Source: a virus (Duplodnaviria > Heunggongvirae > Uroviricota > Caudoviricetes). Taken from it: a stretch of DNA of 13,959 nt. The stretch lies in IMG/VR virus record IMGVR_UViG_2740892233_000006; one strand, 5' to 3'. Both the position numbers and the translations under genes were made by a program. Each line of letters starts with the position of its first letter. Positions within the stretch are counted from its first letter, which is position 1. Of the stretch, positions 1 through 13,959 are shown one piece after another. The notes beneath the pieces are model-generated. The model ran no database searches. It was not told the origin of the DNA and was given only the letters and a program-made list of their open reading frames with translations.

Positions 1-407
1 CGTAGCTGATCACATGCGCCTTTGATATCGCCCTGGTTTATTTTGCGAAGAAGCGTCGATGTTCTGAAATTGCCAGCACCCACGTTGTAAACGAATGAGT
101 AAAGAGCGCCGCGCGTTGTTTCCGGTATATCGACTTCGATGTACGGGTTAATTTGTCTGGCGACAGTGGCAAGGTCTTTATTCAAGAGTGCTTTGCATTC
201 TGCTTTGGTATACGTTTTACCGAGCATGATGTCTTTTCCTGTATGCCCGTGACATACAGTCCATACACCAACAATATCTTTGTATGGTATGTAGCTGACA
301 CCTTCCAGACCATCGTTACCACTTGGGCCAGTGATTAACACTGATGCTATAGCAATTGCTCCGCCACCAATAGCAGCAGCAACGGCTTTTCGTAATGATG
401 GAGGCAT
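1..407 (-). CDS. rrrD: SAR endolysin (phage 21 R / RrrD-like lysozyme), C-terminal part lost at window start
   Basis: Minus-strand reading from ATG at 407-405 gives [23 protein letters not shown]..., a signal-anchor-release N-terminus as in phage 21 R. The ATG overlaps the holin stop (TAATG). ORF runs off the window edge. Confidence 0.8.
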
Positions 408-622
408 TATTCACCTCTCGCAGCCTTGCGCTTATCTTCTTTAATCTTGAAATAAAGGTTTGTCAGGTACGTCAGCAGGCCAAATACCAGGCTACCCAGC
501 ACACCTATTGCTGCCCACTGTGAGGGCGTGACTTTATCGAGCAGCTGTAAAAACCAGTAACCGGCACTACCTGCTGAGGTGCCATAGGCGACACCCGTTG
601 TTAACTTATCCATGGATTTCAT
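407..622 (-). CDS. essD: class II pinholin (S21 / EssD-like) with dual-start motif
   Basis: ORF track 407..667; likely real start is the internal MKSMDK (Met-Lys-Ser-Met dual start) preceded by GAGGTG SD, giving 71 aa: [31 protein letters not shown]...[13 protein letters not shown] with two hydrophobic segments. Confidence 0.85.
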
Positions 623-749
623 AACCCCACCTCGCAGACAAAGCGGGTGTAAATTGAGGGAATACAACGTATCGCAAAAAAGCAGAAACGTAACAGACTC
701 GGAGTCAGTGAATAACTCAGGTATTGGGTTATCAGCTAATATCGAGACT

Positions 750-783
750 CAAAAAATGGAAAAACCCGCTCGACGGCGGGTTT
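750..783 (-). terminator. rho-independent terminator just upstream of the lysis cassette (candidate tR')
   Basis: Minus strand reads CCCGC-cgtcga-GCGGG stem-loop followed by TTTTTCCATTTTTT. Confidence 0.6.
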
Positions 784-1210
784 AAGCTGTGTGACGAAGT
801 AACCACTCTTAACAGCATAACCAATTTTTTACGTACGTAAACCACTAAATGATATTTGCGAGAATGCTACCGAGTATTGAAAACACCACTACAAATACAT
901 AAACAAATCTCAACAAATAACCAACAAATAATTTCCAGCGTTATTTTTAGCCGATTTAAATTGAACCTTCAAATTATAGGGCACTTATAAATAACAGCCA
1001 TTAATATAAATTGGCTAATAGATTTATTTTTATTCAGCCAAGAGCCATGAATAGGATTCGATAGAAAAAGTTCAGATAAAAATAGAGATCTACTTCACAA
1101 ATCAAATGAGAAACCAAAACTTACATCTTGAAATAATCACATTGATTAGATGAATATTTATCGCGCAGTGACATCATTTTTTAATAATAGTTCAAAAAAA
1201 AGGGCTCACG

Positions 1211-2293
1211 ATGAAAAAATTAACAGTGGCAATTTCTGCTGTAGCTGCATCAGTACTGATGGCGATGTCTGCTCAGGCAGCTGAAATTTATAATAAAGAC
1301 AGTAACAAGCTGGATCTGTACGGGAAAGTTAATGCTAAGCACTACTTCTCCTCTAATGATGCAGATGATGGTGATACTACTTATGCCCGTCTTGGCTTCA
1401 AAGGTGAAACCCAAATCAACGATCAACTGACTGGTTTCGGTCAGTGGGAATATGAATTCAAAGGCAACCGCGCTGAATCTCAAGGTTCCTCCAAAGATAA
1501 AACCCGTCTTGCCTTCGCTGGCCTGAAATTCGGTGACTACGGCTCCATCGATTATGGCCGTAACTACGGTGTAGCATACGATATTGGTGCATGGACCGAC
1601 GTTCTGCCAGAATTCGGTGGCGATACCTGGACCCAAACAGATGTATTCATGACTGGTCGCACCACAGGTGTTGCAACTTATCGTAACAATGACTTCTTTG
1701 GTCTGGTTGATGGTCTGAACTTTGCTGCTCAGTATCAGGGTAAAAATGACCGTACTGACGTAACTCAAGCTAATGGTGATGGTTTCGGTTTCTCCACTAC
1801 TTATGAGTATGAAGGTTTCGGCGTAGGTGCAACCTATGCTAAATCTGATCGCACTAATAATCAGGTTATCTACGGTAACAACAGCCTGAATGCATCTGGT
1901 CAAAATGCTGAAGTATGGGCAGCTGGTCTGAAATATGATGCGAACAACATCTATCTGGCTACTACCTATTCTGAAACCCAAAACATGACTGTTTTTGGTA
2001 AAAACCATATTGCCAACAAAGCACAAAACTTCGAAGTAGTTGCACAATATCAGTTCGACTTCGGTCTGCGTCCGTCCGTTGCTTATCTGCAATCTAAAGG
2101 GAAAGACTTGGGTGCTTGGGGTGATCAGGACCTGGTTGAATATATTGATGTAGGTGCAACCTATTACTTCAACAAAAATATGTCCACTTTTGTTGACTAC
2201 AAAATCAACCTGATTGATAAGAGCGATTTCACGAAAGCATCTGGCGTTGCTACCGATGATATCGTTGCTGTAGGTATGGTTTACCAGTTCTAA
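1211..2293 (+). CDS. nmpC: outer-membrane general porin, prophage-encoded (NmpC/Lc type, OmpC/OmpF/PhoE family)
   Basis: 360 aa; signal peptide [23 protein letters not shown] then [16 protein letters not shown]...; C-terminus ...VGMVYQF. Lies between Q and holin on the opposite strand. Confidence 0.9.
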
Positions 2294-2317
2294 TTTGATT
2301 ACTAAAACATATGTTGT

Positions 2318-2363
2318 GGGAGGCTTTGCCTCCCCAACATATAAGTGGCTCCCTCAAGCCACT
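2318..2363 (+). terminator. stem-loops downstream of nmpC (candidate nmpC terminator; no canonical U-tract)
   Basis: GGGAGGC-ttt-GCCTCCC (2318-2334) and AAGTGGCT-ccctca-AGCCACTT (2342-2363), starting about 25 nt after the nmpC stop. Confidence 0.35.
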
Positions 2364-2481
2364 TCCTTTAGAAGCACAACCTTGCTTCTAACTATATAAA
2401 CCTTCTGTTATATATTACCCTTTATTTTTGGGGGCGTTTCAACGCCCCATTCTTAATAATTTTTAGTAAACAATTGGCATA

Positions 2482-2865
2482 TTAATTAGAGTTATTAACA
2501 ACGATATCCATCTCTAACCGGATATCTAATGCCATTAACATCCCTTCAATTATGCCCTCAGCCTTCTGTAACCTTTTCCCGATATAACCATCAGAGCAGC
2601 AATGCTTACCTGCCAGTGACATGAATGTCATACCGACTACATAATAATCTACTAATAAATCGTGCAAATCGCTGTTGTTCTTTTTCAGACGGGCCATGCA
2701 CCCGCAAATGATCATCGCGTCATCGTCACAACATTGCGGGCGAGATTTTACTTTTGAAGTAATTAATCCCTTAAAACCGGCGGCAATGGACGACCAGGTC
2801 ACATCTTCATGATTATTAGCCGCCCACGCTCCCCAACGCTCAAGAACCATCTGAATATCACGCAT
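2482..2865 (-). CDS. quuD: late-gene antiterminator Q (phage 82 / QuuD type)
   Basis: ORF track 2482..2880 (TTG start); better start is ATG at 2865 ([24 protein letters not shown]...) with GGAG SD 8 nt upstream; 127 aa, Cys-rich, matches remembered QuuD. Confidence 0.85.
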
Positions 2866-2950
2866 CAACTTACTCCACAAAAATCAGACCAGAACGCCAA
2901 TTACAAGCAAAAATCAACGAAACAGTATTAGTTGATTGTTATCTCTGACT

Positions 2951-3073
2951 TCATACTCCTGCTCCTGTCAGGGTTTTGGCGTAATTCTTCAGTATTCGGT
3001 AATCGGTCAAAACAGAACCGGGGAAACGATATAAGCGCAGACGCCCCCAGCGGTGGCGAAGACGTTCTGCCAT
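2951..3073 (-). CDS. ylcG: small protein, YlcG-like (40 aa)
   Basis: Manual translation between rusA stop and Q start: MAERLRHRWGRLRLYRFPGSVLTDYRILKNYAKTLTGAGV*. Same position as ylcG in DLP12. Confidence 0.4.
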   Translation of the reverse strand: MAERLRHRWGRLRLYRFPGSVLTDYRILKNYAKTLTGAGV

Positions 3074-3087
3074 ATAAAACTCAAACA

Positions 3088-3450
3088 TCATTCATTCCCC
3101 ATTTCGGTGATGGTCAGTTCCAGCCTCCCACCTTTGGTAACAGGCATCTTCACAACGCGGTAATCAACGACCTGAGCATCATCCAGCCAGAAACCTGCTT
3201 TAGTGAGTGCGTCAAAAGCGGCTTTTTGCAGATTATCCAGGTCACGGCGACGGCGATCCGGCATGTGGCACTCAATGCGGATTTTCACAGGCATAGCCAA
3301 GCCGATATCCAGCATTGCGTTTTTAATGATTCGGGCGACGTTATCGCGGTATGCCTGCCCCTCTGCGCTGACGTGCGTGCGCCCGCGATTATGGCGGTAA
3401 TAGCGATTATTGCTCGGAGGCCAGGGTAATGTGATGCTGTAGGTATTCAC
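3088..3450 (-). CDS. rusA: RusA Holliday junction resolvase
   Basis: [38 protein letters not shown]...[11 protein letters not shown]; likely GTG start at 3450 overlapping the ybcO stop (GTGA); 120 aa. Confidence 0.85.
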
Positions 3451-3737
3451 GCCTTGATTACCCCCTCTTTCAGCCAGATAACCTGCGTTCTCGCCATACC
3501 TTCCAGCGCGCATTCTTTTGCGTACTCAGCATCGACAAAATGCGTGCGGCGGTCGATTTCGTCGTGACAGGCAGAACAGGCAATGGTGGCAATAAGGTCT
3601 GGCGGTTTAATACCGGTGCCACACAGTCCAGCCAGCCGGATATGTGCCAGTACAGACGTTTCAGGGTTGCCATTGCATACGCCAGGGATTCTTACCTGGC
3701 ATTCGCGACCACGCGCTGCTTTTCTCAAATCAGCCAT
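3447..3737 (-). CDS. ybcO: YbcO-like protein (DUF1364, putative nuclease)
   Basis: ORF track 3447..3776; start at internal [37 protein letters not shown]... (96 aa), Cys-rich; overlaps the ninE end. Confidence 0.8.
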
Positions 3738-3900
3738 GATTCCTCCTTGCTGCCAGTCGCAACCATTTTTTATCAACCAGGCTGGCGGTATATCCGAGCA
3801 GTGTTGGTATTTCGGATGGTTTTAGCTCAGGCTTACGCTTACGACGATTTGGTACTCTGTAGATGTGTCCGTTCATGACACGAATAAGCGGTGTAGCCAT
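3730..3900 (-). CDS. ninE: NinE-like protein (56 aa)
   Basis: Manual translation: [59 protein letters not shown] overlaps the ybcN stop (TAATG); stop overlaps the ybcO start. Confidence 0.7.
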   Translation of the reverse strand: MATPLIRVMNGHIYRVPNRRKRKPELKPSEIPTLLGYTASLVDKKWLRLAARRNHG

Positions 3901-4355
3901 TACGCCTCCTGCTTGTCGCGCAGCAGCTGGAACTCGCAGCTCTGCGGAATAGTCAGGTGGCAGCCAATATTCATCGCCCAGGCTTCAACCTTACACAGGA
4001 AGACATACATCTCTCCGGTATCAAGATCGGAGGTATGGCGTAACGACTGGATAGTAGTGATTTCGCCGGTTACGACATCAACCAGGTCCTTGGTTTCATA
4101 ACCGAGGTATGTGTGTTTGAGAGCATCTTTTACCCATGCTGCGGTAGCGAACGATTTCCCCCTGCGGATAAGGTATTCACTGATTTCGCTGTACCACATG
4201 TGGCTAAGTGCATTCTGGGAAAGACTGCGTCTCTCGCGCCACGGTTTAAGCACCATGCGAAAGCACTTGCCGTCTTCCAAATAAGGCTGGAGCTGCTGAC
4301 CGATAGCGGTGAAGTTACCGCGATGCAGTTTGATGCCGTCTTGTGGGAGGTTCAC
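3900..4355 (-). CDS. ybcN: YbcN-like protein (DLP12 ybcN homolog; reported DNA base-flipping protein)
   Basis: 151 aa [55 protein letters not shown]...; GTG start preceded by GGAGGTGA SD. Confidence 0.8.
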
Positions 4356-4391
4356 GCTTCACCTCCGCAGAGGTCAAACGCTGGATAAAGA

Positions 4392-4484
4392 AAATCGCAG
4401 GTGCATTTCTGCATCTGTGACGGGAGAAGATAGTTTAGATTGTATGTGCGCATAAACGTCCCCGTTTAGCGCAGAAGTCACCGG
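4392..4484. repeat. 93-bp direct repeat, copy A (about 95% identical to 6713-6805)
   Basis: aaaatcgcaggtgcatttctgcatctgtgacgggagaagatagtttagattgtatgtgcgcataaacgtccccgtttagcgcagaagtcaccg; contains palindromic hairpin GCGCataAACG-tcccc-GTTTaGCGC. Confidence 0.75.
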
Positions 4485-4505
4485 AGGAGTTCAAACTCCG
4501 GTGAC
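4479..4505 (-). other. perfect 9-bp stem-loop downstream of the cargo cassette (TCACCGGAG-N9-CTCCGGTGA); no U-tract
   Basis: Inverted repeat read directly; lies between the 133-aa gene stop and repeat copy A. Confidence 0.35.
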
Positions 4506-4576
4506 TTAATTATGACAAGTTGATTATTGAAAATCAAAAGTCATTTAAACAATAATGATACCCAGCAAGAGATTTC

Positions 4577-4978
4577 TTATTTTAACTCATAGATCAGACA
4601 GTCAACGATTTCTAAACCATTTACCATAGAATTAGAAACGCGAACTTTACCATCGTTGACTCTAGCAAATCCTTTTAACATTTTATAAACAAAAGCTGAA
4701 TCCCCCTTAGCCTCAATTGCTTCTAATGGTATCGGCTTATACTTTTTTGATATGCTATTTCTATTTATCTCACTGATTTTTCTATATATTTCTGCCGGCC
4801 CACGTTCTGAGAAGTCACTGATAACTAAAATATATCTCCAAGATAGATCTGGGTAATAAAACCACATTGCAGCATCAATAGTTAAATTCTGTAACTTGAG
4901 TTTTTTTAACAAAAATTGACCTGAGAATTCCATATCTTTTGTCAACTCTCTGCCGATTACCAGTGTGCTTTTACCCAT
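4577..4978 (-). CDS. hypothetical 133-aa protein, partner gene overlapping the HEPN-like gene end
   Basis: ATG at 4978 preceded by GGAG SD (7-nt spacing); overlaps upstream gene by 22 nt; AT-rich codon usage unlike flanking phage genes; no family recognised. Confidence 0.55.
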   Translation of the reverse strand: MGKSTLVIGRELTKDMEFSGQFLLKKLKLQNLTIDAAMWFYYPDLSWRYILVISDFSERGPAEIYRKISEINRNSISKKYKPIPLEAIEAKGDSAFVYKMLKGFARVNDGKVRVSNSMVNGLEIVDCLIYELK

Positions 4979-5373
4979 TTCAAAACTCCAGAATTTTGGT
5001 CACCTACAGCATCAAACAATTGTTCGGCCATAGCTTTACTTATGTTATTGTCGTATCTAAATTGCTCGCTCCAGTCTTTAACGACCGACCAGTTAATCTC
5101 CAACGAAACATCATTTTTTGCGTCAGCAATCAAAATTTGATGTAAGTTGGCAATTTTGAGAAGTTGCGACAAATCATGAGTATATGAATCATTTACGACT
5201 TTTTTGTTTGGAAACTCATGTTGTAAAAATGACTTGGCAATACAGGCCTTCAATGCACATTCAACTGCATACCCACAAAGATAATATGCACCATGAAAAA
5301 AGCCATGATCAAGCAAGCATTTGGCCTCATTAAGCCTAGTGTCAGATAATGCTTCAAGGTCGTTTTTATTCAT
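4957..5373 (-). CDS. HEPN-like domain protein (138 aa), candidate toxin/abortive-infection effector
   Basis: LLDHGFFHGAYYLCGYAVECALKACIAKS ... SYTHDLSQLL ... EQFRYDNNISKAMAEQLF matches the remembered HEPN (PF05168-type) pattern (helical A-x-E-x-ALKA, H-x-L-x-x-L, RY); TATAAT-like hexamers upstream on minus strand. Confidence 0.5.
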   Translation of the reverse strand: MNKNDLEALSDTRLNEAKCLLDHGFFHGAYYLCGYAVECALKACIAKSFLQHEFPNKKVVNDSYTHDLSQLLKIANLHQILIADAKNDVSLEINWSVVKDWSEQFRYDNNISKAMAEQLFDAVGDQNSGVLKWVKAHW

Positions 5374-5672
5374 ACAATTATAACTTGAATTATCCTAATT
5401 TTTATGATTATACCCTTATCAGGTATGATGTAGGAACTGAAAACAATATTGGATATCATTTTCGGTATTTCTCTGCAAATTCCAGCCCACAGGATCTCGG
5501 TGTACAATCTGTCGCTGATCGCGCAAATTTAGGGTCAATCACTTCATTTTTTGCATCAAACCCTCACTAACATCGAACGATTATAGTACAAGTAGTGTTC
5601 TTGACTTCTCATTAAACCGTCAGCATTCAATTAATTACAAAATACTAGCGGCATTTCTCTCCCGCAACTTTA

Positions 5673-6281
5673 TTACAGCCGTTCAGAACGTAAATGCGTC
5701 AATACTCGACTCCACTTATCATCCTGCCACGGCCGGAATTTTACATGTGCCGTTTCTCTGGCAAGGATTGCCTGTGCCTTATTGAGTATCCGGGGATATT
5801 CTTGTTCGATTGAAGTGAAGCGACCGGCTTCGCGGTGTTCTGCTACCTGAAGAAGCGGAGTGACGTTTTGGCAAGCGGTTAACATTGTGTCACTTGCCCG
5901 CCATAACCAAGCAAGTGTGCAAAGTTCGTTATCAGTGAATTGTTTTGTGATTGGGGATTGTTGAATTTCTCGATCGAGAATATCCAGCACCCAGCGGCGG
6001 AATTCTTTGGCCACAGGAGTGCGGGCGAACATGGCGATCAGATGGGCGCCACGGAGGGAGAAAATGCGAGTCTTCTTACGATAATTTCCTGAGGTCGTTG
6101 ATTCGACGACCTGAGACATTCCGTCAGTAAACTCATCAATATTTTTGTTGTAGATGTCGGTTACTGCTTTGGTGCTGGCATATTTTAATGCTGCCGCCAA
6201 TTCTTTGCTGGTAAACCAGATCTGGTTGTTGTGATTTATAGGAGTGAATTTTACATCGCGGAATGCGAGCTGAGTGACCAT
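5673..6281 (-). CDS. phage antirepressor-like protein (Bro-N / KilA-N / AntA-type N-terminal domain, unknown C-terminal domain)
   Basis: ORF track 5673..6518; domain-like sequence starts at internal Met: MVTQLAFRDVKFTPINHNNQIWFTSKELAAALKY...TRIFSLRGAHLIAMFARTPVAKEFRRWVLDIL. Start is uncertain (no good SD); a terminator at 6443-6466 argues against the 6518 start. Confidence 0.55.
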   Translation of the reverse strand: MVTQLAFRDVKFTPINHNNQIWFTSKELAAALKYASTKAVTDIYNKNIDEFTDGMSQVVESTTSGNYRKKTRIFSLRGAHLIAMFARTPVAKEFRRWVLDILDREIQQSPITKQFTDNELCTLAWLWRASDTMLTACQNVTPLLQVAEHREAGRFTSIEQEYPRILNKAQAILARETAHVKFRPWQDDKWSRVLTHLRSERL

Positions 6282-6442
6282 AGCGATAATCTCGTTTTGA
6301 ATTTGAGCTATCACCACCGACGACGCCAATCGACTGGTGGTGGACTGTGCAAGGTTGGCGTAACCGGTCAAAACGAAATCCGGCGCTTCCGAAGAAGCCC
6401 TCACACAGCCCACCATAATTTTTGTGTAGACGTGCACTGCGC

Positions 6443-6466
6443 ATAAAAAAACCGCGAACGCGGTTA
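6443..6466 (-). terminator. rho-independent terminator in the nin-type region (tR2-like position)
   Basis: Minus strand: AACCGCG-ttc-GCGGTT followed by TTTTTTTAT. Confidence 0.6.
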
Positions 6467-6712
6467 TGCGTCGTTTTGATGTCCGGGACGCCAATCCCGT
6501 GTGCCGATTTTGCGGCAACGCACAGAATATAGCGCCGGATAAATAATGTCGTCAACCCTTGCATATGGGGGGCGCGATGATCACTACTACCACCATAATC
6601 GCTCCAACTGTTGCAACTACTTTAGGCTAAGACATCACGATTTCCATATCACCTTTAGCCGCCAGACAAACAGAGACTCCCTGTTCTTGGCTGCCAAAAA
6701 CACCGAATGCAA

Positions 6713-6805
6713 AAAATCGCAGGTGTATTTCTGCATCTGTGGAGGGAGAAGAGAGTTTGGATTGTATGTGCGCATAAACGTCCCCGTTTAGCGCAGAAGT
6801 CACCG
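6713..6805. repeat. 93-bp direct repeat, copy B (partner of 4392-4484)
   Basis: aaaatcgcaggtgtatttctgcatctgtggagggagaagagagtttggattgtatgtgcgcataaacgtccccgtttagcgcagaagtcaccg; 5 mismatches to copy A. Confidence 0.75.
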
Positions 6806-7033
6806 TAGTTGTTCATATTCTGATGACATGATAATTTCCTATTGAATAGAAAAAATTAACACGACTCATTCTTATGACTGGAAAAAGCAATCATGCTAAT
6901 AATCATTGTTGTTCCAGTTCCAAATGCAGCGAAATAATCACCAATATTTTTTCTACCGGTTTCGACTTTGATGCTATATTCTGCTAACACCTAACTAACA
7001 CTACGTTTCACACAGCAATTACATGGAAATAAC

Positions 7034-7381
7034 ATGACTATCAAAGCGACTGACATAGAGATTCTTCATCGTTATGCTGAAGGGGTAATGGAACGTTCTA
7101 ACCATCATGCAAAAAATGTTGGTGCAGCCGCTCTTACATTGCTAGGAGGTGTTATCTGGAAAGCCCTGCCCGGATCAATCGAGATAAGAACGTATAACGG
7201 AAGTCTTGCAAATATGGTGTGGTGGCAAAGCGAAAGAACATTAAAAAATTATGCAATCTCATACAACCATAATTCATGTGAAATTGAAATGAGAGATGAA
7301 TCAGTCAAAGGTGCTGTATTATTTAGCATTTCCAACGAAACCACTCCAGAAAAAATATTATCACAGCTTTCTGAGCTTTAA
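7034..7381 (+). CDS. hypothetical 115-aa protein, reverse-oriented orphan (moron) gene at the ren position
   Basis: MTIKATDIEILHRYAEGVMERSNHHAKNVGAAALTLLGG...; purine-rich RBS; AT-rich; opposite strand to the flanking early genes; stem-loop directly downstream. Confidence 0.55.
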   Translation: MTIKATDIEILHRYAEGVMERSNHHAKNVGAAALTLLGGVIWKALPGSIEIRTYNGSLANMVWWQSERTLKNYAISYNHNSCEIEMRDESVKGAVLFSISNETTPEKILSQLSEL

Positions 7382-7386
7382 TTAAA

Positions 7387-7404
7387 GGCGGTGCTAACAC
7401 CGCC
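7387..7404 (+). terminator. stem-loop after the 115-aa gene (GGCGGTG-ctaa-CACCGCC), weak or bidirectional terminator
   Basis: Perfect 7-bp GC-rich stem 6 nt after the stop codon; A/T-rich flanks but no clean U-tract. Confidence 0.35.
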
Positions 7405-7556
7405 CATACCATTACTCCACATCTTACGCAACTTGATAATTATGCTCTATTAAATACCCACAATATTTCATCAATGCATGGGTCAGCTACAAAATGTTTA
7501 CCGTGGTAATTCCTGTTTTCGCAACATCTCAAAAGAACAATAAACACTGTATTTCT

Positions 7557-7589
7557 TCAAGTAACGAAGAATCTTTCTTTGCCCGTCAT
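7557..7589 (-). pseudogene. ren: ren 5' remnant (MTGKERFFVT*)
   Basis: ATG overlaps the P stop codon (GTATGA) as ren does in lambda; first residues MTGKE match remembered lambda Ren, then stop after 10 codons. Confidence 0.4.
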
Positions 7590-8431
7590 ACACTTGCTCC
7601 TTTCAGCCCAAACTTAGCTTTGATTTCTGCGATCTTCGCCAGAGCCTGTGCACGATTTAGAGGTCTACCGCCCATAACAGGAAGTTGTTTTACTGGTTCA
7701 GGTATCGTCTCACCACGGTTAATTCGCGCTGTCATACAGGTCAGTTCATCGGCAGCCTTGCGCCGTAATTCCGCGTCAGTCAGCGCATTGGCCCGCATGT
7801 TCTGGTACAGGTTGGTAACCAACCAGTAATGCGCGTTCGATTTCCACGGATAAGACTCTGCATCCGGATACAGGCCACGCTTCCGGCAATACTCGTAAAC
7901 CATATCAACCAGCTCGCTGACGTTTGGCAGCCCGGCGTTAACGGATGCTTCTTCCCGGCACCATGCAACAAACTGCCCGGGTGATGGCAGAAATGGTCTA
8001 TTCTGCCGACGGGCAACACGCATTCCGGCGCTCACCTGTTCCATCGTGGTGATCCCGTTTTCCCGGAAAGCCAGAACCCACTGGCGGCGGATTTCGTTCA
8101 GTTCGTTCTGGTCACGATTAGCCAGGCTCGCCGGGAAAGTTGCCAGTAACTGGCTGAATACACCGTTGATTATCTGCGCTACCTGCTGTACCTGCGGCTT
8201 TTCGTCGTACTGTTCCGGCATGTTGTTGGCGATCCGACGCATCTGCTCACNNNNNNNNNNGTTAGCCAGGCTCGCCGGGAAAGTTGCCAGTAACTGGCTG
8301 AACACACCGTTGATGATCTGCGCTACCTGCTGTACCTGAGGCTTTTCGTCGTACTGTTCCGGCATGTTGTTGGCGATCCGACGCATCTGCTCACGGTCAA
8401 AGTTAACCATCTGTGCGGCGATGTTTTTCAT
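7586..8431 (-). CDS. P: replication protein P (lambda P-like helicase loader); reading frame contains scaffold gap 8251-8260 with duplicated flank
   Basis: MKNIAAQMVNFDREQMRRIANNMPEQYDEKPQVQQ... ...KIAEIKAKFGLKGASV; the 281-aa ORF is inflated by an artefactual repeat of EQMRRIANN...ASLAN around the N run. Confidence 0.85.
   Translation of the reverse strand: MKNIAAQMVNFDREQMRRIANNMPEQYDEKPQVQQVAQIINGVFSQLLATFPASLANXXXXEQMRRIANNMPEQYDEKPQVQQVAQIINGVFSQLLATFPASLANRDQNELNEIRRQWVLAFRENGITTMEQVSAGMRVARRQNRPFLPSPGQFVAWCREEASVNAGLPNVSELVDMVYEYCRKRGLYPDAESYPWKSNAHYWLVTNLYQNMRANALTDAELRRKAADELTCMTARINRGETIPEPVKQLPVMGGRPLNRAQALAKIAEIKAKFGLKGASV
8251..8260. other. 10-nt N run (scaffold gap) with about 130 bp near-identical duplicated flanks
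   Basis: Sequence before the gap (gattagccaggctcgcc...atctgctcac) recurs after it with 3 mismatches. Confidence 0.95.
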
Positions 8432-9503
8432 AGATCCACCCCGTAAATCCAGTCTGTGTTTGTCAGGTCGAGTTTTGGTTTGCTGGCTGTCACGGCTGCC
8501 TGTTGCTTGTTACGGTTGATTTCGAGCTGGGTCCACTTGTCGCGGAGTTTGGCCGGACTNNNNNNNNNNAATCCACCCCGTAAATCCAGTCAGTGTTTGT
8601 CAGGTCGAGTTTTGGTTTGCTGGCTGTCACGCCTGCCTGTTGCTTGTTACGGTTGATTTCGAGCTGGGTCCACTTGTCGCGGAGTTTGGCCGGACTCAGC
8701 ACGTTACCGGACCAGAAGTTGTCCTGGCAGGCCCAGCGGAAAAGCACACACATATCGCGGTGGTTACGTCCGTCACGTTCACGCATCAGGCGGATATCGT
8801 TAGCCCACCCTGCAAAATTCGGTTTTCTGGCTGATGGTGCGATGGTCTTCACCATGTCAAACATCCACTCTGCGGCGGTCAGGTCTTCTGCTGTTCCCCA
8901 CTTGCTGCCGCTCTGAATTGCAGCATCCGGTTTAACCACAGAAAGATCGTTTTCTGGCTGGTCAGAGGATTCGCCAGAATTCTCGGACGAATAATCTTTT
9001 CTTTTTTCTTTTGTAATAGTGTCTTTTGTGTCCCCCTGTTTTGAGGGATAGCAATCCCCTAATTTGAGGGATGTTTTATCCCTCGTTTTAGGGGATTTTC
9101 CCTCGTTTTGAGGGATGTCCCTCATTTTAGGGGAACCTCCCTCGTTTTGAGGGATGCACCATTCTGAGATGTTTTTATTTGGTCCAAACATGCCGCCTTG
9201 CTGCTTGATAATATTCATTCTGACGAGTTCTAACTTGGCTTCATTGCACCGTTTGACAGGTAACTTTGTAATCTCGCTAAGTTGAGAATCGGTGATTCTG
9301 TCCATTGGTTTATTCCACCCATAGGTTTTACGCAGAATGGCAAGCAGCACTTTAAACTGTCGCTTGGTCAGATCTGCGCCTGAATAGGCCTCAAGCAGCA
9401 TATTTGATAGTCTGGCGTAACCATCATCGAGATCTGCCACATTACGCTCCTGTTCGGCAAAGTTACCTCTGCCGAAGTTGAGTATTTTTGCTGTATTTGT
9501 CAT
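8428..9503 (-). CDS. O: replication initiator O, lambda type (contains ori iterons; frame interrupted by scaffold gap 8560-8569)
   Basis: MTNTAKILNFGRGNFAEQERNVADLDDGYARLSNMLLEAYSGADLTKRQFKVLLAILRKTYGWNKPMDR...; GGAG SD; the C-terminus ...TDWIYGVDL with stop overlapping the P ATG lies in the segment below the gap. Confidence 0.8.
8560..8569. other. 10-nt N run (scaffold gap) with about 125 bp near-identical duplicated flanks
   Basis: O C-terminal coding sequence appears on both sides of the gap with 2 mismatches. Confidence 0.95.
9031..9156. repeat. lambda-type replication origin iterons, six copies inside the O gene
   Basis: Six TCCCTC-N5/6-GAGGGA-type palindromic units at about 20-bp spacing, followed by an AT-rich stretch. 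Confidence 0.8.
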
Positions 9504-9535
9504 AATGACTCCTGTGGATTGATCCAGTAATTCCC

Positions 9536-9677
9536 TCAGAATTGCATATCAATTTGCTTAGAGTCCCCGGCGGCCACCGGGGATTTTTTCTTTGTGATTT
9601 CATCAAGCGCATACTTAAAAGCCCTGCTAATCGGACTGATGTCTGATGCCATTCCGAAAGCACACAAGACCGAAGCA
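9536..9677 (-). CDS. cII-like gene, 3' fragment only (5' end lost in scaffold gap)
   Basis: Frame ending at stop 9536-9538 encodes ...ISRAFKYALDEITKKKSPVAAGDSKQIDMQF*, resembling the remembered lambda CII C-terminus (...ILTNKKRPAATERSEQIQMEF); directly upstream of O. Confidence 0.45.
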
Positions 9678-9687
9678 ATAAATCTCC
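9678..9687. other. 10-nt N run (scaffold gap) joining an O 3' end to a cII-like 3' fragment
   Basis: Flanks are not duplicates here: one side is O C-terminal coding sequence, the other a cII-like gene end. Confidence 0.95.
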
Positions 9688-10571
9688 NNNNNNNNNNCGA
9701 CTGTCACGCCAGCCTGTTGCTTGTTCCGGTTGATTTCGAGCTGGGTCCACTTGTCGCGGAGTTTGGCCGGACTCAGCACGTTACCGGACCAGAAGTTGTC
9801 CTGGCAGGCCCAGCGGAACAGTACACACATGTCGCGGTGGTTACGTCCATCACGTTCACGCATCAGACGGATATCGTTAGCCCACCCTGCAAAATTCGGT
9901 TTTCTGGCTGATGGCGCGATGGTCTTCACCATGTCAAACATCCACTCTGCGGCGGTCAGGTCTTCTGCTGTCCCCCACTTGCTGCCGCTCTGAATCGCAG
10001 CATCCGCTTTCACCACAGGAAGGTCGTTTTCTGGCAGGTCAGAGGATTCGCCAGAATTCTCGGACGAATAAGGTTTTATATTGTCTTTTGTTAGTTTGTC
10101 TTTTGTGTTTACCTGATTCGGGTAAGTGCCTTTACCTGATTTGGGTAAACTTTTCTTACCTGATTCAGGTAAATTTACCTCTTTCAGGTAAACTTTATTT
10201 TTCTTACCTGATTCGGGTAATGTTGACCATTCACTGACCACATTATTAATGCCGATATTCCGCCCGCTCTGAATAAAAATCCCACGCTTTACCAGAACAC
10301 TTTTTGCAGCAGAACACTTGTGCGGCAATATCCCGGTCAACTCGGAAAGTTGCTCGTTGCTCACCCAGTCCAGTTTTTTATTAAAGCCATATGTTTTGCG
10401 CATGACAGCCAGGAAGACCAGAAGCTGGTGCTGTGTTAATCCGGCCAGCATTACAGCTTCCAGCAACTCATTTGCAATGCGCGTATAACCATCATCGAGA
10501 TCTGCCACGCGCGGCTCCTTTTGTGCCGCATCCGGCACTGGAAAATTGAATATCTCAGCAGTGTTTGCCAT
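9688..10571 (-). CDS. replication initiator O, second type (different N-terminal iteron-binding domain; 3' end lost in gap)
   Basis: Start MANTAEIFNFPVPDAAQKEPRVADLDDGYTRIANELLEAV... with GGAGG SD (ORF track start 10661 is too long); C-terminal domain identical in sequence to the lambda-type O. Confidence 0.75.
10108..10222. repeat. second replication origin iteron set, five copies of TTACCTGATTCGGGTAA-like palindromes inside the second O gene
   Basis: Five units (TTACC-N7-GGTAA) at 23-29 bp spacing, read directly. Confidence 0.75.
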
Positions 10572-10657
10572 AATTCCTCCCGCAATGAGTGTGTTACGAT
10601 TTGCACCTGAAAGTCGGTTCTGTTCCAGCAGACCGGCTTTCGCCATTTCTGAACCTG

Positions 10658-11197
10658 TCATATCGCCCCCAGCATGGTAGTAACCATCGCCATCAATGGA
10701 CCAGCCAGCTCTGGGTCCACACGAAACATCGACACAATACCTTCACTAATTTCCTTCAGTTTCTGGTGGCGTGGTGCGTTGAGAATGACAGCCTGTTTTG
10801 CCTCACTGAGTTCCTTTTCCATTTCAGCCAACCTAGCCATGAAGCTATCCTGCTCAACCAGGTAACCGCGATATTCCAGCGGTAGTACCGCCAGAATTGC
10901 CGGGGTCAGTTCACGCACGTTATTTCGGTATTTTTCAGAATCGAATTTGTTATCGAGGAAGCGGAACAGCTTCTGGCGTGTACGGCTGACATCATCAGGG
11001 AAATCGATGGTGCCGCCGCCCTGCTCCCGATACTCATTCACAATGAGTGTGGCAACGACATCCTGATTATCTACAGCCGACCAGGCGCGGACGGCATCAC
11101 GGATTTTTTCGTGGCCTGGCACCTGTTTTGTTTGAGAACGATTTATCACCGCAGTCGGGCTAAATCCGCTAGTCTGTTGGTATGGAAGTGGTTGCAT
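10658..11197 (-). CDS. YdaT-like protein (occupies the cII position downstream of cro)
   Basis: 179 aa; GGAG SD; segment SRTRQKLFRFLDNKFDSEKYRNNVRELTPAILAVLPLEY resembles remembered Rac YdaT; gene order cro-like then this gene then O. Confidence 0.55.
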   Translation of the reverse strand: MQPLPYQQTSGFSPTAVINRSQTKQVPGHEKIRDAVRAWSAVDNQDVVATLIVNEYREQGGGTIDFPDDVSRTRQKLFRFLDNKFDSEKYRNNVRELTPAILAVLPLEYRGYLVEQDSFMARLAEMEKELSEAKQAVILNAPRHQKLKEISEGIVSMFRVDPELAGPLMAMVTTMLGAI

Positions 11198-11242
11198 AAT
11201 TGACTCCTTTAGTTTGAATTGACTGTTAAGTTGATTGCTTAT

Positions 11243-11255
11243 TGTTAAAGAGCGT
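11243..11255 (-). promoter_or_regulatory. boxA-like element (CGCTCTTTAACAA on minus strand) between cro-like and YdaT-like genes, nutR position
   Basis: Close match to remembered boxA consensus (rrn boxA TGCTCTTTAACAA; lambda CGCTCTTA); no clear boxB hairpin follows. Confidence 0.4.
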
Positions 11256-11266
11256 GAAATGGAAAT

Positions 11267-11497
11267 TTAAGCTGCGTTCTTTTCGGTGTGTGGAAACAAC
11301 TTCGGAAGATCCGGGCGAATCTGGTATGCCTTCACTACTCCACCAGTAGCCGTAACAATGCTGCCGACATGTTCAGGGGATACCTTTGCTTTGTTGTGAA
11401 GCCACTTATAGACGGCCTGCTGTGAAACTTCGCAGGCAGCGCCCAGTTTCTTTTGTGAACCAACGATATTGATCGCTGTTTTGATAGCTGGGTTCAT
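11267..11497 (-). CDS. Cro-like / YdaS-like small HTH regulator
   Basis: 76 aa MNPAIKTAINIVGSQKKLGAACEVSQQAVYKWLHNKAKVSPEHV...; GGAGG SD; divergent from cI across an operator region. Confidence 0.7.
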   Translation of the reverse strand: MNPAIKTAINIVGSQKKLGAACEVSQQAVYKWLHNKAKVSPEHVGSIVTATGGVVKAYQIRPDLPKLFPHTEKNAA

Positions 11498-11601
11498 AAC
11501 AACCTCCGTGGTTAATTTGAATCAAGATTAAAACTATGGTTGTTTTTAGTCAACAACCATTTTCGTTTGATGGAATAAAACCTTGGTTGTACATTTGGAC
11601 T
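11498..11601. promoter_or_regulatory. OR-type operator region with divergent pR (minus) and pRM (plus) candidates
   Basis: Perfect palindrome TGGTTGTT-N7-AACAACCA (11537-11559) overlapping a minus-strand TTGACT -35; related half-sites at 11498-11515 and 11584-11600; plus-strand TTGATG-N17-TACATT ends about 6 nt before the cI ATG. Confidence 0.6.
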
Positions 11602-12291
11602 ATGAAAACAACACTCTCAGAAAGACTTAAAGAAGCCAGATTAGCGCGAGGCCTTACACAAAAGGCGCTTGGGGATTTGGTCGGGGTTAGCCAGGCTGCT
11701 ATTCAGAAAATCGAAACAGGGAAAGCTAATCAAACAACTAAAATCGTGGAGATCGCGAACGCTTTGGGTGTGCGCGCAGAATGGTTATCTTCTGGCGTTG
11801 GAAATATGTCAGACAGTACAGTGCAACCAATACAATCAACTGTCAGCCATTCCAAATACTTCAAGATTGACGTTCTTGATATAGAAGTCAGTGCTGGGCC
11901 GGGAGTCATCAACCGTGAGTTTGTAGAAGTTCTACGCTCGGTTGAGTACTCGTTTGACGATGCTCGTCACATGTTCGATGGTAGGAAGGCAGAAAATATC
12001 CGCATCATTAACGTGCGTGGTGACAGCATGTCAGGAACGATCGAACCAGGTGATCTGCTGTTCGTTGATATCACGGTTAAATCTTTCGACGGTGATGGTA
12101 TCTATGCATTTCTGTACGACGACACCGCCCATGTAAAGCGCCTGCAAATGATGAAGGATAAACTGCTGGTTATCTCTGATAACAAGAGCTACTCACCGTG
12201 GGACCCTATCGAGAAAGACGAGATGAACCGGGTATTCATATTCGGTAAGGTTATTGGGAGCATGCCGCAGACGTACAGAAAACACGGATAA
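11602..12291 (+). CDS. cI: CI-type prophage repressor (N-terminal HTH, C-terminal LexA/S24-like autopeptidase domain)
   Basis: Start at MKTTLSERLKEARLARGLTQKALGDLVGVSQAAIQKIETG...; C-terminal domain has GDSM (Ser) and HVKRL (Lys) dyad context; ORF track start 11536 would run through the operators. Confidence 0.85.
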   Translation: MKTTLSERLKEARLARGLTQKALGDLVGVSQAAIQKIETGKANQTTKIVEIANALGVRAEWLSSGVGNMSDSTVQPIQSTVSHSKYFKIDVLDIEVSAGPGVINREFVEVLRSVEYSFDDARHMFDGRKAENIRIINVRGDSMSGTIEPGDLLFVDITVKSFDGDGIYAFLYDDTAHVKRLQMMKDKLLVISDNKSYSPWDPIEKDEMNRVFIFGKVIGSMPQTYRKHG

Positions 12292-12372
12292 TCAGCCGCG
12301 TGTTGATGAGGCTTTTGGGTAATACGCTGAAGAAAATACCTTATAAAAAATAACATTACGGGAAAGGCAAAA

Positions 12373-12636
12373 ATGAGTAATAAAACACTTGTTAAAAAAT
12401 CAAATAACTGTGTCGATGCATACGCCGACGCGTTTGGCTACTCTTCGTTTGGTGACGGCTCTCAGCGCCTAGGTTCAATTTCTTTTTTTCATAATGTAAC
12501 TGAATGGCCTGTTGATGAAAGTGACGATGTTGAGAACATAAAGTACAACATTGCAACCATTAGAATGCCCGAAGAATTGATGCTTAAATTGGCTGACTTC
12601 ATTCGCGACCAGCATGACAAAGCTAAAACAAACTAA
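12373..12636 (+). CDS. hypothetical 87-aa acidic protein, first gene downstream of cI (rexA position)
   Basis: MSNKTLVKKSNNCVDAYADAFGYSSFGDGSQRLGSISFFHNVTEWPVDESDDVEN...; AT-rich; same strand as cI. Confidence 0.55.
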   Translation: MSNKTLVKKSNNCVDAYADAFGYSSFGDGSQRLGSISFFHNVTEWPVDESDDVENIKYNIATIRMPEELMLKLADFIRDQHDKAKTN

Positions 12637-12648
12637 TCGTAATTAATT

Positions 12649-13092
12649 ATGAAACACGATTATTACGAAGCTCCAAACCTAAATGATAAAATTGCAAAGG
12701 CGGCAGAATCATTTTGTTTGCACTCCAGTGCGTCTTCCCAGCTAGCAGGTATATCTGGAAAAAGATGGGACATGCTACAATCAAGTGGTAGCAGTGGGTC
12801 TGGGAGTGATAACATGCCTGAAAAAGTTGCAAAACTGGAGTCCGATGTTGCTCATATCAAACGAGACGTTGATGAACTTAAAACAGACGTTAAAGCTATC
12901 GACAAAAATATGATAACTATTCTTGCACGTCTGGACTCTATAAAAGAATCCTTAACAAACAAGCCATCAAGTGATGCTGTCGATAGAAAGATTTCAGACG
13001 CAAAGCTTGCGGTATTGCTTGGTGTTCCAGCAATCATCGCTGCAGGAACAGGACTTTATAAGCTATCAATGTACTTTTTCTTTAGTGCTTAA
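12649..13092 (+). CDS. hypothetical membrane-anchored coiled-coil protein (147 aa; alternative start at 12811 gives 93 aa)
   Basis: Ser/Gly linker SSGSSGSGSDN, heptad-like EKVAKLESDVAHIKRDVDELKTDVKAIDKNMITILARLDSIKESL, C-terminal hydrophobic helix AVLLGVPAIIAAGTGLYKL. ATG 12 nt after the preceding stop; GGGAG SD before the internal MPEKV start. Confidence 0.55.
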   Translation: MKHDYYEAPNLNDKIAKAAESFCLHSSASSQLAGISGKRWDMLQSSGSSGSGSDNMPEKVAKLESDVAHIKRDVDELKTDVKAIDKNMITILARLDSIKESLTNKPSSDAVDRKISDAKLAVLLGVPAIIAAGTGLYKLSMYFFFSA

Positions 13093-13166
13093 GAAAATGC
13101 TCGCACCCTTGCATTAGGTAAAGCGATTTTTCATTCCCCATTACCCTCGCTCTTAACCAATCATCT

Positions 13167-13196
13167 AAACCCGGCCACCGTGCCGGGTTTTCTTTT
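13167..13196 (+). terminator. rho-independent terminator ending the cI / accessory-gene operon
   Basis: AAACCCGG-ccaccgtg-CCGGGTTT stem-loop followed by TCTTTTG. Confidence 0.7.
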
Positions 13197-13292
13197 GCCC
13201 TCCCCTCATCATACACCGTTCAAAAAAACCACCACGACCTCGCTTCAGTTATCGCTATGCGATGCAAGTCACAAAATAAATCCATCTTAAAT

Positions 13293-13366
13293 ACAACCAG
13301 TTATATCTAAAACAACCAACAAAACAACTTTTGTTGTTGACGATAAAACAACTATAGTTTTAAATG
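13293..13366 (+). promoter_or_regulatory. candidate OL/pL: cluster of ACAACCA repressor half-sites with TTGACG-N17-TTAAAT promoter
   Basis: ACAACCA at 13293-13299 and 13311-13318; inverted repeat AACAAC-TTTT-GTTGTT at 13323-13338 overlapping -35 TTGACG (13337-13342); -10-like TTAAAT at 13360-13365. Same half-site as the OR palindrome. Confidence 0.5.
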
Positions 13367-13471
13367 AGTTCATCGCAACAACACAACGATACGGCAATCA
13401 CCTGATTCACCGTTGCGATGACCGCTTAGATCCGCAGCTTGAATTTCAGCAGGCTTCGGGGAGTGCGAGGG

Positions 13472-13534
13472 ATGAAACGGACGCGTGAACGTCGGTGTGA
13501 CCAGCTGAAATCAACTCAACATTTCATACCTTAG
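13472..13534 (+). pseudogene. N-like antiterminator N-terminal remnant: 20-codon ORF with Arg-rich motif ending at in-frame TAG
   Basis: MKRTRERRCDQLKSTQHFIP*; RTRERRCDQ resembles the remembered lambda N motif RRRERRAEKQ; GGGAG SD upstream; same frame as the downstream 13559..13849 ORF. Confidence 0.4.
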
Positions 13535-13642
13535 TCGCTTCAACGAGGCGGCTTAGTTATGACAACCGGCGGCCATCCACCGCCTGAATACGCGCAGAAG
13601 TCTTTATATGTTCAGCAGCCCAGCTTACGGGCAGGAGTTTTT

Positions 13643-13849
13643 ATGGTTCATCAACATTACGGAACGCAGACCGTTAATCGCGGTGCGGTCATGCCAGGAA
13701 TGCTGGTCAAACGCAAAGATGGTACCTGGACTGCATCAGCTAATTTACGCGGACGACTTTATCTGCATCGCGGCATTGAGCGCACTTATACCCGTGACTT
13801 GCTCGTGGAAGTTTTTCTCGACGGACGCGGCAACGCTCTGAATCACTAA
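13643..13849 (+). CDS. hypothetical small basic protein (68 aa from strong-SD start; ORF track alternative 13559, 96 aa), between N-like remnant and gam
   Basis: AGGAG-N5-ATG at 13643: MVHQHYGTQTVNRGAVMPGMLVKRKDGTWTASANLRGRLYLHRGIERTYTRDLLVEVFLDGRGNALNH. Confidence 0.5.
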   Translation: MVHQHYGTQTVNRGAVMPGMLVKRKDGTWTASANLRGRLYLHRGIERTYTRDLLVEVFLDGRGNALNH

Positions 13850-13924
13850 TCCCCTTTCCTGTTTTCCGAATCAGCCTGGCATTCCGCGGGCGATTTTTTC
13901 ACAGCCATTTTCAGGAGTTCAGCC

Positions 13925-13959
13925 ATGAACGCTTATTACATTCAGGATCGTCTTGAGGC
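13925..13959 (+). CDS. gam: Gam (RecBCD inhibitor), first 11 codons only, truncated by window end
   Basis: AGGAG SD then MNAYYIQDRLEA, matching the remembered N-terminus of lambda Gam (short form); upstream in-frame codons ...AIFRSSA resemble the lambda GamL extension. Confidence 0.55.
   Translation, partial: MNAYYIQDRLE

Follow-up and report, generated by a model that had tools for sequence, protein, structure and literature searches.

Tandem O genes in a lambdoid prophage sequence, very probably a scaffolding artefact combining contigs of three prophage copies

Lambdoid phages typically combine a mosaic N-terminal iteron specificity of the O protein with a shared C-terminal region that interacts with P. 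Lambdoid prophages recombine freely through this shared O C-terminal/P region, and mosaic replication modules are common. The closed genome of E. coli O26:H11 str. 11368 (NC_013361.1), used here for comparison, contains three prophage copies of such a region, designated A, B, and C (L001, L002, and L003, respectively). The copy A prophage, at ~0.62 Mb, is located next to a tRNA-Arg and is annotated with the order S24 repressor, transcriptional regulator, YdaT-domain protein, replication protein (O), and replication protein P. The copy B prophage, at ~0.90 Mb, lies ~280 kb from copy A, and copy C, at 3.13 Mb, lies ~2.5 Mb away from it. The copy B prophage is degraded: its O is frameshifted, its cII and sieB are truncated, and IS3/IS600 elements are inserted nearby. 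Of the paralogous replication modules, one or more is therefore a pseudogene remnant.

The window, meaning the whole stretch of 13,959 nucleotides analysed here (IMG/VR virus record IMGVR_UViG_2740892233_000006), contained exactly three N-runs of 10 nt each and no other ambiguity code. This fixed length (three times 10 N) is one of the marks of a scaffold-join artefact. The runs divided the window into four pieces:

1–8250: seg1, contig of prophage copy A (argU/DLP12-like lambdoid)
8251–8260: linker 1, 10-N scaffold linker with overlapping flanks
8261–8559: seg2, 299-bp contig carrying the copy B allele (second prophage)
8560–8569: linker 2, 10-N scaffold linker with overlapping flanks
8570–9687: seg3, 1118-bp contig of a third prophage, copy C
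9688–9697: linker 3, 10-N scaffold linker at a non-homologous join
9698–13959: seg4, contig of prophage copy A

The initial annotation had placed the first two runs exactly, and the third at 9678–9687, 10 nt too far to the left; these positions are real sequence and correspond to the last 10 nt of a cII fragment. Seg1 contained an ompC-like porin, a Q-like antiterminator, rusA, ninE, and related genes, and its right end was inside gene P. Seg2 consisted of the 5′ end of P (8261–8431) and the 3′ end of O (8428–8559), and seg3 of the 3′ half of cII and a lambda-type O. In seg4, Pfam matches indicated a second, 3′-truncated O, a YdaT-domain gene, a YdaS/Cro-like gene, and an S24 repressor (plus strand), with further genes downstream. 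A 123-bp direct repeat was also observed in the nin-like region, at 4391–4513 and 6713–6835 (108 of 123 positions identical, or 88%; 2.3 kb apart). A hairpin (AAGTCACCGGAG...CTCCGGTGACTT) closes the copy at 4391–4513; its counterpart in the copy at 6713–6835 is degraded. Since the closed reference contains the two copies as well (L001 5992–6114 and 8314–8436), the repeat is real and not an effect of the assembly.

The two outer pieces were neighbours in NC_013361.1. Seg1 corresponded to positions 1602–9851 of L001 with an identity of 99.988% (1 mismatch in 8250), and seg4 to positions 9941–14202 with an identity of 100%. Only 89 bp separate them there, within one prophage with an intact O and an intact P. 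Against copies B and C, the identity was 94% over 675 nt of P for seg1 and about 94% over 408 nt of the 3′ part of O for seg4. The inner pieces mapped elsewhere, and such an origin from different loci is another mark of a scaffold-join artefact. Seg2 was 100% identical to NC_013361.1 positions 900337–900635 (L002 4001–4299), as compared to 98.3% with copy C and 97.0% with copy A. Seg3 corresponded to NC_013361.1 positions 3128207–3129324 in L003 (99.7%, 3 mismatches), and to copy A at 94%, the match being limited to the 461 nt of the shared 3′ part of O. It was 100% identical to the sequence of strains SJ2D and 13081, lying in SJ2D inside a normal cro-cII-O-P-ren module, and 99.7% identical to the replication module of Stx1a-converting phages. 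The strain of the window differs from 11368 (1 mismatch in seg1, 3 in seg3), and its prophage layout could differ from that of the reference.

A contiguous contig of E. albertii (L006) showed how the pieces relate to each other: the homologues of seg3, seg2, and seg1 tile one normal cII-O-P stretch, with exactly the overlaps described below. Two MAG contigs, L008 (JAJXBQ010000280.1) and L009 (CAKRSU010000058.1), labelled Segatella copri and Oxalobacter sp., respectively, share with the present E. coli-type lambdoid cII/O region an exact 39-mer as well as stretches at 96% identity. Mis-binning of Enterobacteriaceae phage contigs is the probable explanation.

At the first gap, the last 134 nt of seg1 (8117–8250) matched the first 134 nt of seg2 (8261–8394) with 4 mismatches. 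At the second gap, the last 127 nt of seg2 (8433–8559) matched the first 127 nt of seg3 (8570–8696) with 3 mismatches. The repeats had been given before as 125–130 bp with 2–3 mismatches; their presence stands, with these corrected sizes. Matches of such length and identity are far beyond chance. An end overlap between seg3 and seg4 was looked for at the third gap and none was found, but in reference coordinates the two pieces overlap on L001 (9891–10351 for seg3, 9941 onward for seg4). Overlapping or homologous flanks, a further mark of scaffold-join artefacts, were thus observed at all three joins, the third by way of the reference. Alignment revealed that one homologous stretch of 76 nt, from the 3′ end of O, occurs in the window as three different haplotypes, at 8484–8559, 8621–8696, and 9698–9773. 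The starts of seg2, seg3, and seg4 each fell, in the alignment, on a SNP position that distinguishes the prophage copies: seg3 starts with an allele specific to copy C, seg4 with an allele specific to copy A, and seg2 with an allele common to copies B and C and absent from A. In the source genome, the O 3′/P region is present in three or more paralogous copies, and the contigs end inside this repeat. The flank repeats at the first and second gaps are unmerged homologous contig ends and not true duplications. An assembler k of about 65 was also considered from the contig ends, two of the right ends being located 64 nt past the last copy-distinguishing SNP; the left ends misfit the same k, and this speculative value was dropped.

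The replication genes at the joins (the two O genes are called O1 and O2 in their order along the window) were the following:

7586–8250, minus strand: P, copy A allele (Pfam Phage_lambda_P, E = 8.7e-62)
8570–9503, minus strand: O1, lambda-type replication initiator (Pfam Phage_rep_O, E = 6e-36)
9033–9155: iterons of the O1 ori, six lambda-type palindromic units (TCCCTCnnnnnGAGGGA)
9536–9687, minus strand: 3′ half of cII (Pfam Phage_CII, profile positions 48–88 of 91)
9698–10571, minus strand: O2, copy A replication initiator (Pfam Phage_rep_O, E = 6e-34)
10108–10220: iterons of the O2 ori, five TTACCTGATTCGGGTAA-like palindromic units

Every one of these genes was cut by a contig end. P in seg1 lacks its first 37 nt (the CDS at 9187–9888 of L001 corresponds to 7586–8287 of the window). 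O1 is present in its own contig for 934 of 939 nt, without the last 5 nt (CDS at 3996–4934 of L003, window 8565–9503). The cII fragment represents 152 of 297 nt (CDS at 4967–5263 of L003, window 9536–9832) and belongs with O1. O2 lacks its last 56 nt, as seg4 begins 56 nt before the stop codon (CDS at 9885–10904 of L001, window 9642–10661). The initial annotation had described two complete O genes, which does not hold; apart from the missing 3′ ends, both reading frames are intact. It had correctly seen that the third gap puts the 3′ part of the second O directly against that of a cII gene, and that the two iteron sets differ. Both proteins are members of the family, with Phage_rep_O scores of 123.2 bits for O1 and 116.8 bits for O2 against a gathering cut-off of 28.7, and in both the iteron array was found inside the gene, beyond the N-terminal domain. 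Overall they share 65% identity, with divergent N-terminal and iteron-coded parts. The C-terminal domain, reported as identical, is indeed shared over ~125 amino acids, in a nearly identical form.

The start of O2 deserves a comment. The RefSeq homologue begins at the ATG equivalent to position 10661 (339 aa) and overlaps the stop codon of the YdaT-domain gene. The homology with lambda-type O starts at the ATG at 10571 (MANTAEIFNF versus MTNTAKILNF), a GGAGG is present upstream, and the alignment with O1 runs from Met1 of both proteins. From these sequence features, the RefSeq-annotated start is probably 30 codons too long. In copy A, the YdaT-domain gene (10658–11497, minus strand) is located between the Cro-like gene and O, where the lambda-type order has cII; this sets the module apart from those of the two sister prophages, which contain cII. 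The Cro-like gene of copy A matches the Pfam family YdaS_toxin, a toxin by its Pfam name.

The tandem arrangement was searched for in 5,426 complete E. coli genomes and 50,697 phage records. With the segment 7400–11300 as a query, 128 closed genomes covered at least 80% in one place, and none of the 5,426 closed E. coli genomes covered more than 82% in one place. The uncovered 18% corresponded to the O1-specific part, and the top places spanned only 2.5 kb (one O and P). In all 25 listed genomes of these 128, a single O was found next to P, in one case split by IS600: H1, the top hit and the only listed genome in which the match covered two features named "replication protein", was examined as a possible true tandem and rejected on this ground. 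An explicit query was then built by fusing the O1-specific part and the cII fragment (668 nt) to the O2-specific part (522 nt). It was found at a threshold of at least 80% in one place in 0 of the 5,426 closed E. coli genomes and in 0 of the 50,697 phage records. Absence from finished genomes, too, is a mark of scaffold-join artefacts. In the closed genomes each O is directly followed by its own P, an adjacency that the joins break in the window.

The tandem O arrangement is thus very probably a scaffolding artefact, formed in an EHEC-like (O26:H11-related) draft genome with at least three lambdoid prophages. We propose the following origin for the joins. The prophages share a stretch of no less than about 1.1 kb (P together with the 3′ part of O) at about 94–98% identity, and the assembler broke the contigs within this O 3′/P repeat. 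In a later step, the contigs would have been laid out by their alignment position on a reference prophage, and neighbouring contigs joined with a fixed 10-N spacer, the overlaps remaining unmerged and the copy of origin unchecked. The outcome is that the 299-bp copy B contig and the 1118-bp copy C contig are interleaved between the true neighbours of copy A. The order of the four pieces is that of their ascending alignment starts on L001 (1602, 9719, 9891, and 9941 for seg1, seg2, seg3, and seg4), and the same order is obtained on L003. It is because the piece order equals this sort order that a reference-guided layout is suggested, and ordering by reference start would also explain the otherwise senseless join of a cII fragment to an O 3′ end at the third gap. 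In the literature, only anecdotal uses of 10-N spacers were found (scaffolds concatenated with 10 Ns; a 10-N gap in a MAG), with no software named.

The true locus consists of seg1 and seg4 with, between them, 89 bp of copy A that are absent from the window. Its local order is repressor, Cro-like gene, YdaT-domain gene, O2, and P, and the piece with the cII fragment and O1 is foreign to it. The suspicion, raised by the initial annotation, that the tandem O genes are an assembly chimera is borne out by the 89-bp spacing of the outer pieces in closed O26:H11 and by the best matches of seg2 and seg3 in other prophages. Near-identical prophages were indeed mixed, three copies rather than the two supposed, and of the two modes envisaged it is mis-scaffolding that applies, the pieces being interleaved and not collapsed. 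The warning against the gene order across 7586–10571 was justified, the O-specific halves being adjacent in no closed E. coli genome or phage record. On the whole, its observations are partly confirmed and its interpretation is supported.

The same chimera could have been produced by a paired-end or graph scaffolder (e.g., de Bruijn, with a minimum 10-N gap), reference ordering not being involved. The fixed 10-N spacer and the near-identical unmerged ends are compatible with such software, and the overlap of exactly 127 nt between seg2 and seg3 could point to it, as 127 is a common maximum k in short-read assemblers. However, overlaps with 3–4 mismatches imply that the pieces are not true graph neighbours, and the overlap between seg1 and seg2 is 134 nt, not 127. 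Moreover, the join between seg3 and seg4 brings together a cII fragment and an O 3′ end without homology, a link that one would not expect from the read pairs of either prophage. Sorting by reference start coordinates explains the order fully. This route fits the mismatched overlaps and the third gap less well than a reference layout, and we consider it rather unlikely; the arrangement is an artefact under either.

It is very improbable that the arrangement is real, i.e., that a recombinant prophage carries O2, the cII fragment, O1, and P in tandem, the gaps being small unresolved stretches. Mosaic replication modules could arise through the shared O C-terminal/P region, and both O frames are otherwise intact. 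Yet a real tandem would also require true imperfect duplications of 134 nt inside P and of 127 nt at the O/P junction. A genuine tandem duplication has both copies complete and a continuous junction; here O2 stops 56 nt short of its stop codon, at a contig start, on a copy-A-specific SNP, and abuts an N-run. In addition, the flanking pieces are neighbours in closed genomes, the inserted pieces match prophages at distant loci, and the tandem occurs in none of the closed genomes or phage records searched. We give hardly any credence to a strain truly possessing two O initiators of different iteron specificity, and hence two origins, upstream of a single P, with the N-runs hiding short stretches. 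The idea that the N-runs are masks over real, truly contiguous bases, as practised for some stretches of a public collection, was rejected as next to impossible on account of the flank duplications. In masking, Ns take the place of the bases they hide; here, two of the runs are flanked by imperfect copies of one sequence (over 134 and 127 nt), and the two sides of the third are collinear in no reference compared. A collinear passage across a run, with exactly 10 bases in place of the 10 N, was found in none of these references either.

A scaffolding artefact being the preferred reading, an annotation of the window at face value would produce three false proteins and a false claim of a dual-origin phage. 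The first is an ORF of 281 aa (7586–8431), P with a false insertion of 48 codons across linker 1, because the 134 nt of overlap and the 10 N make 144 nt and keep the frame. The second is an ORF of 337 aa (8490–9503), O1 with a frameshifted tail across linker 2: 127 and 10 make 137 nt, which shifts the frame, so that the false O ORF ends at 8490. The third (9627–10661, 344 aa) is O2 running into the cII fragment across linker 3, an antisense fusion. Read correctly, the window contains one ordinary lambdoid replication module (O2-P) and stray fragments of two sister prophages. The value of the case is one of quality control only, in showing that reference-ordered drafts of EHEC genomes with multiple prophages can fabricate gene orders.

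Among known systems, the window resembles fragmented or chimeric short-read assemblies of EHEC genomes with multiple lambdoid prophages, such as O26:H11 11368 (NC_013361.1). As in that genome, several prophages share the O C-terminal/P region at 94–98%, contigs break inside this repeat, and each piece of the window has a counterpart at 99.7–100%; the differences are the 1 mismatch in seg1 and the 3 in seg3, which is 100% identical to SJ2D and 13081. With the module of phage lambda (cII-O-P-ren, ori iterons in O), seg3 and seg2 together share a cII 3′ half, lambda-type iterons within O, and an O stop codon overlapping the start of P, but only a fragment of this module is present in the window, where it is foreign to the surrounding locus. 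Another known system is the copy A prophage at the tRNA-Arg of 11368, which bears the DLP12-style gene names intD, quuD, rusA, and essD and an immunity region of the YdaS/YdaT type. The window shares with it the S24 repressor, the YdaS/Cro-like and YdaT-domain genes, O2, and P, followed by the nin-region genes, rusA, quuD, ompC, and the lysis genes, and differs at the O/P junction, where 1447 nt of foreign contigs and linkers stand in place of 89 bp. The biology is that of known lambda-type O/P replication modules, disarranged by assembly, with no real novel feature.
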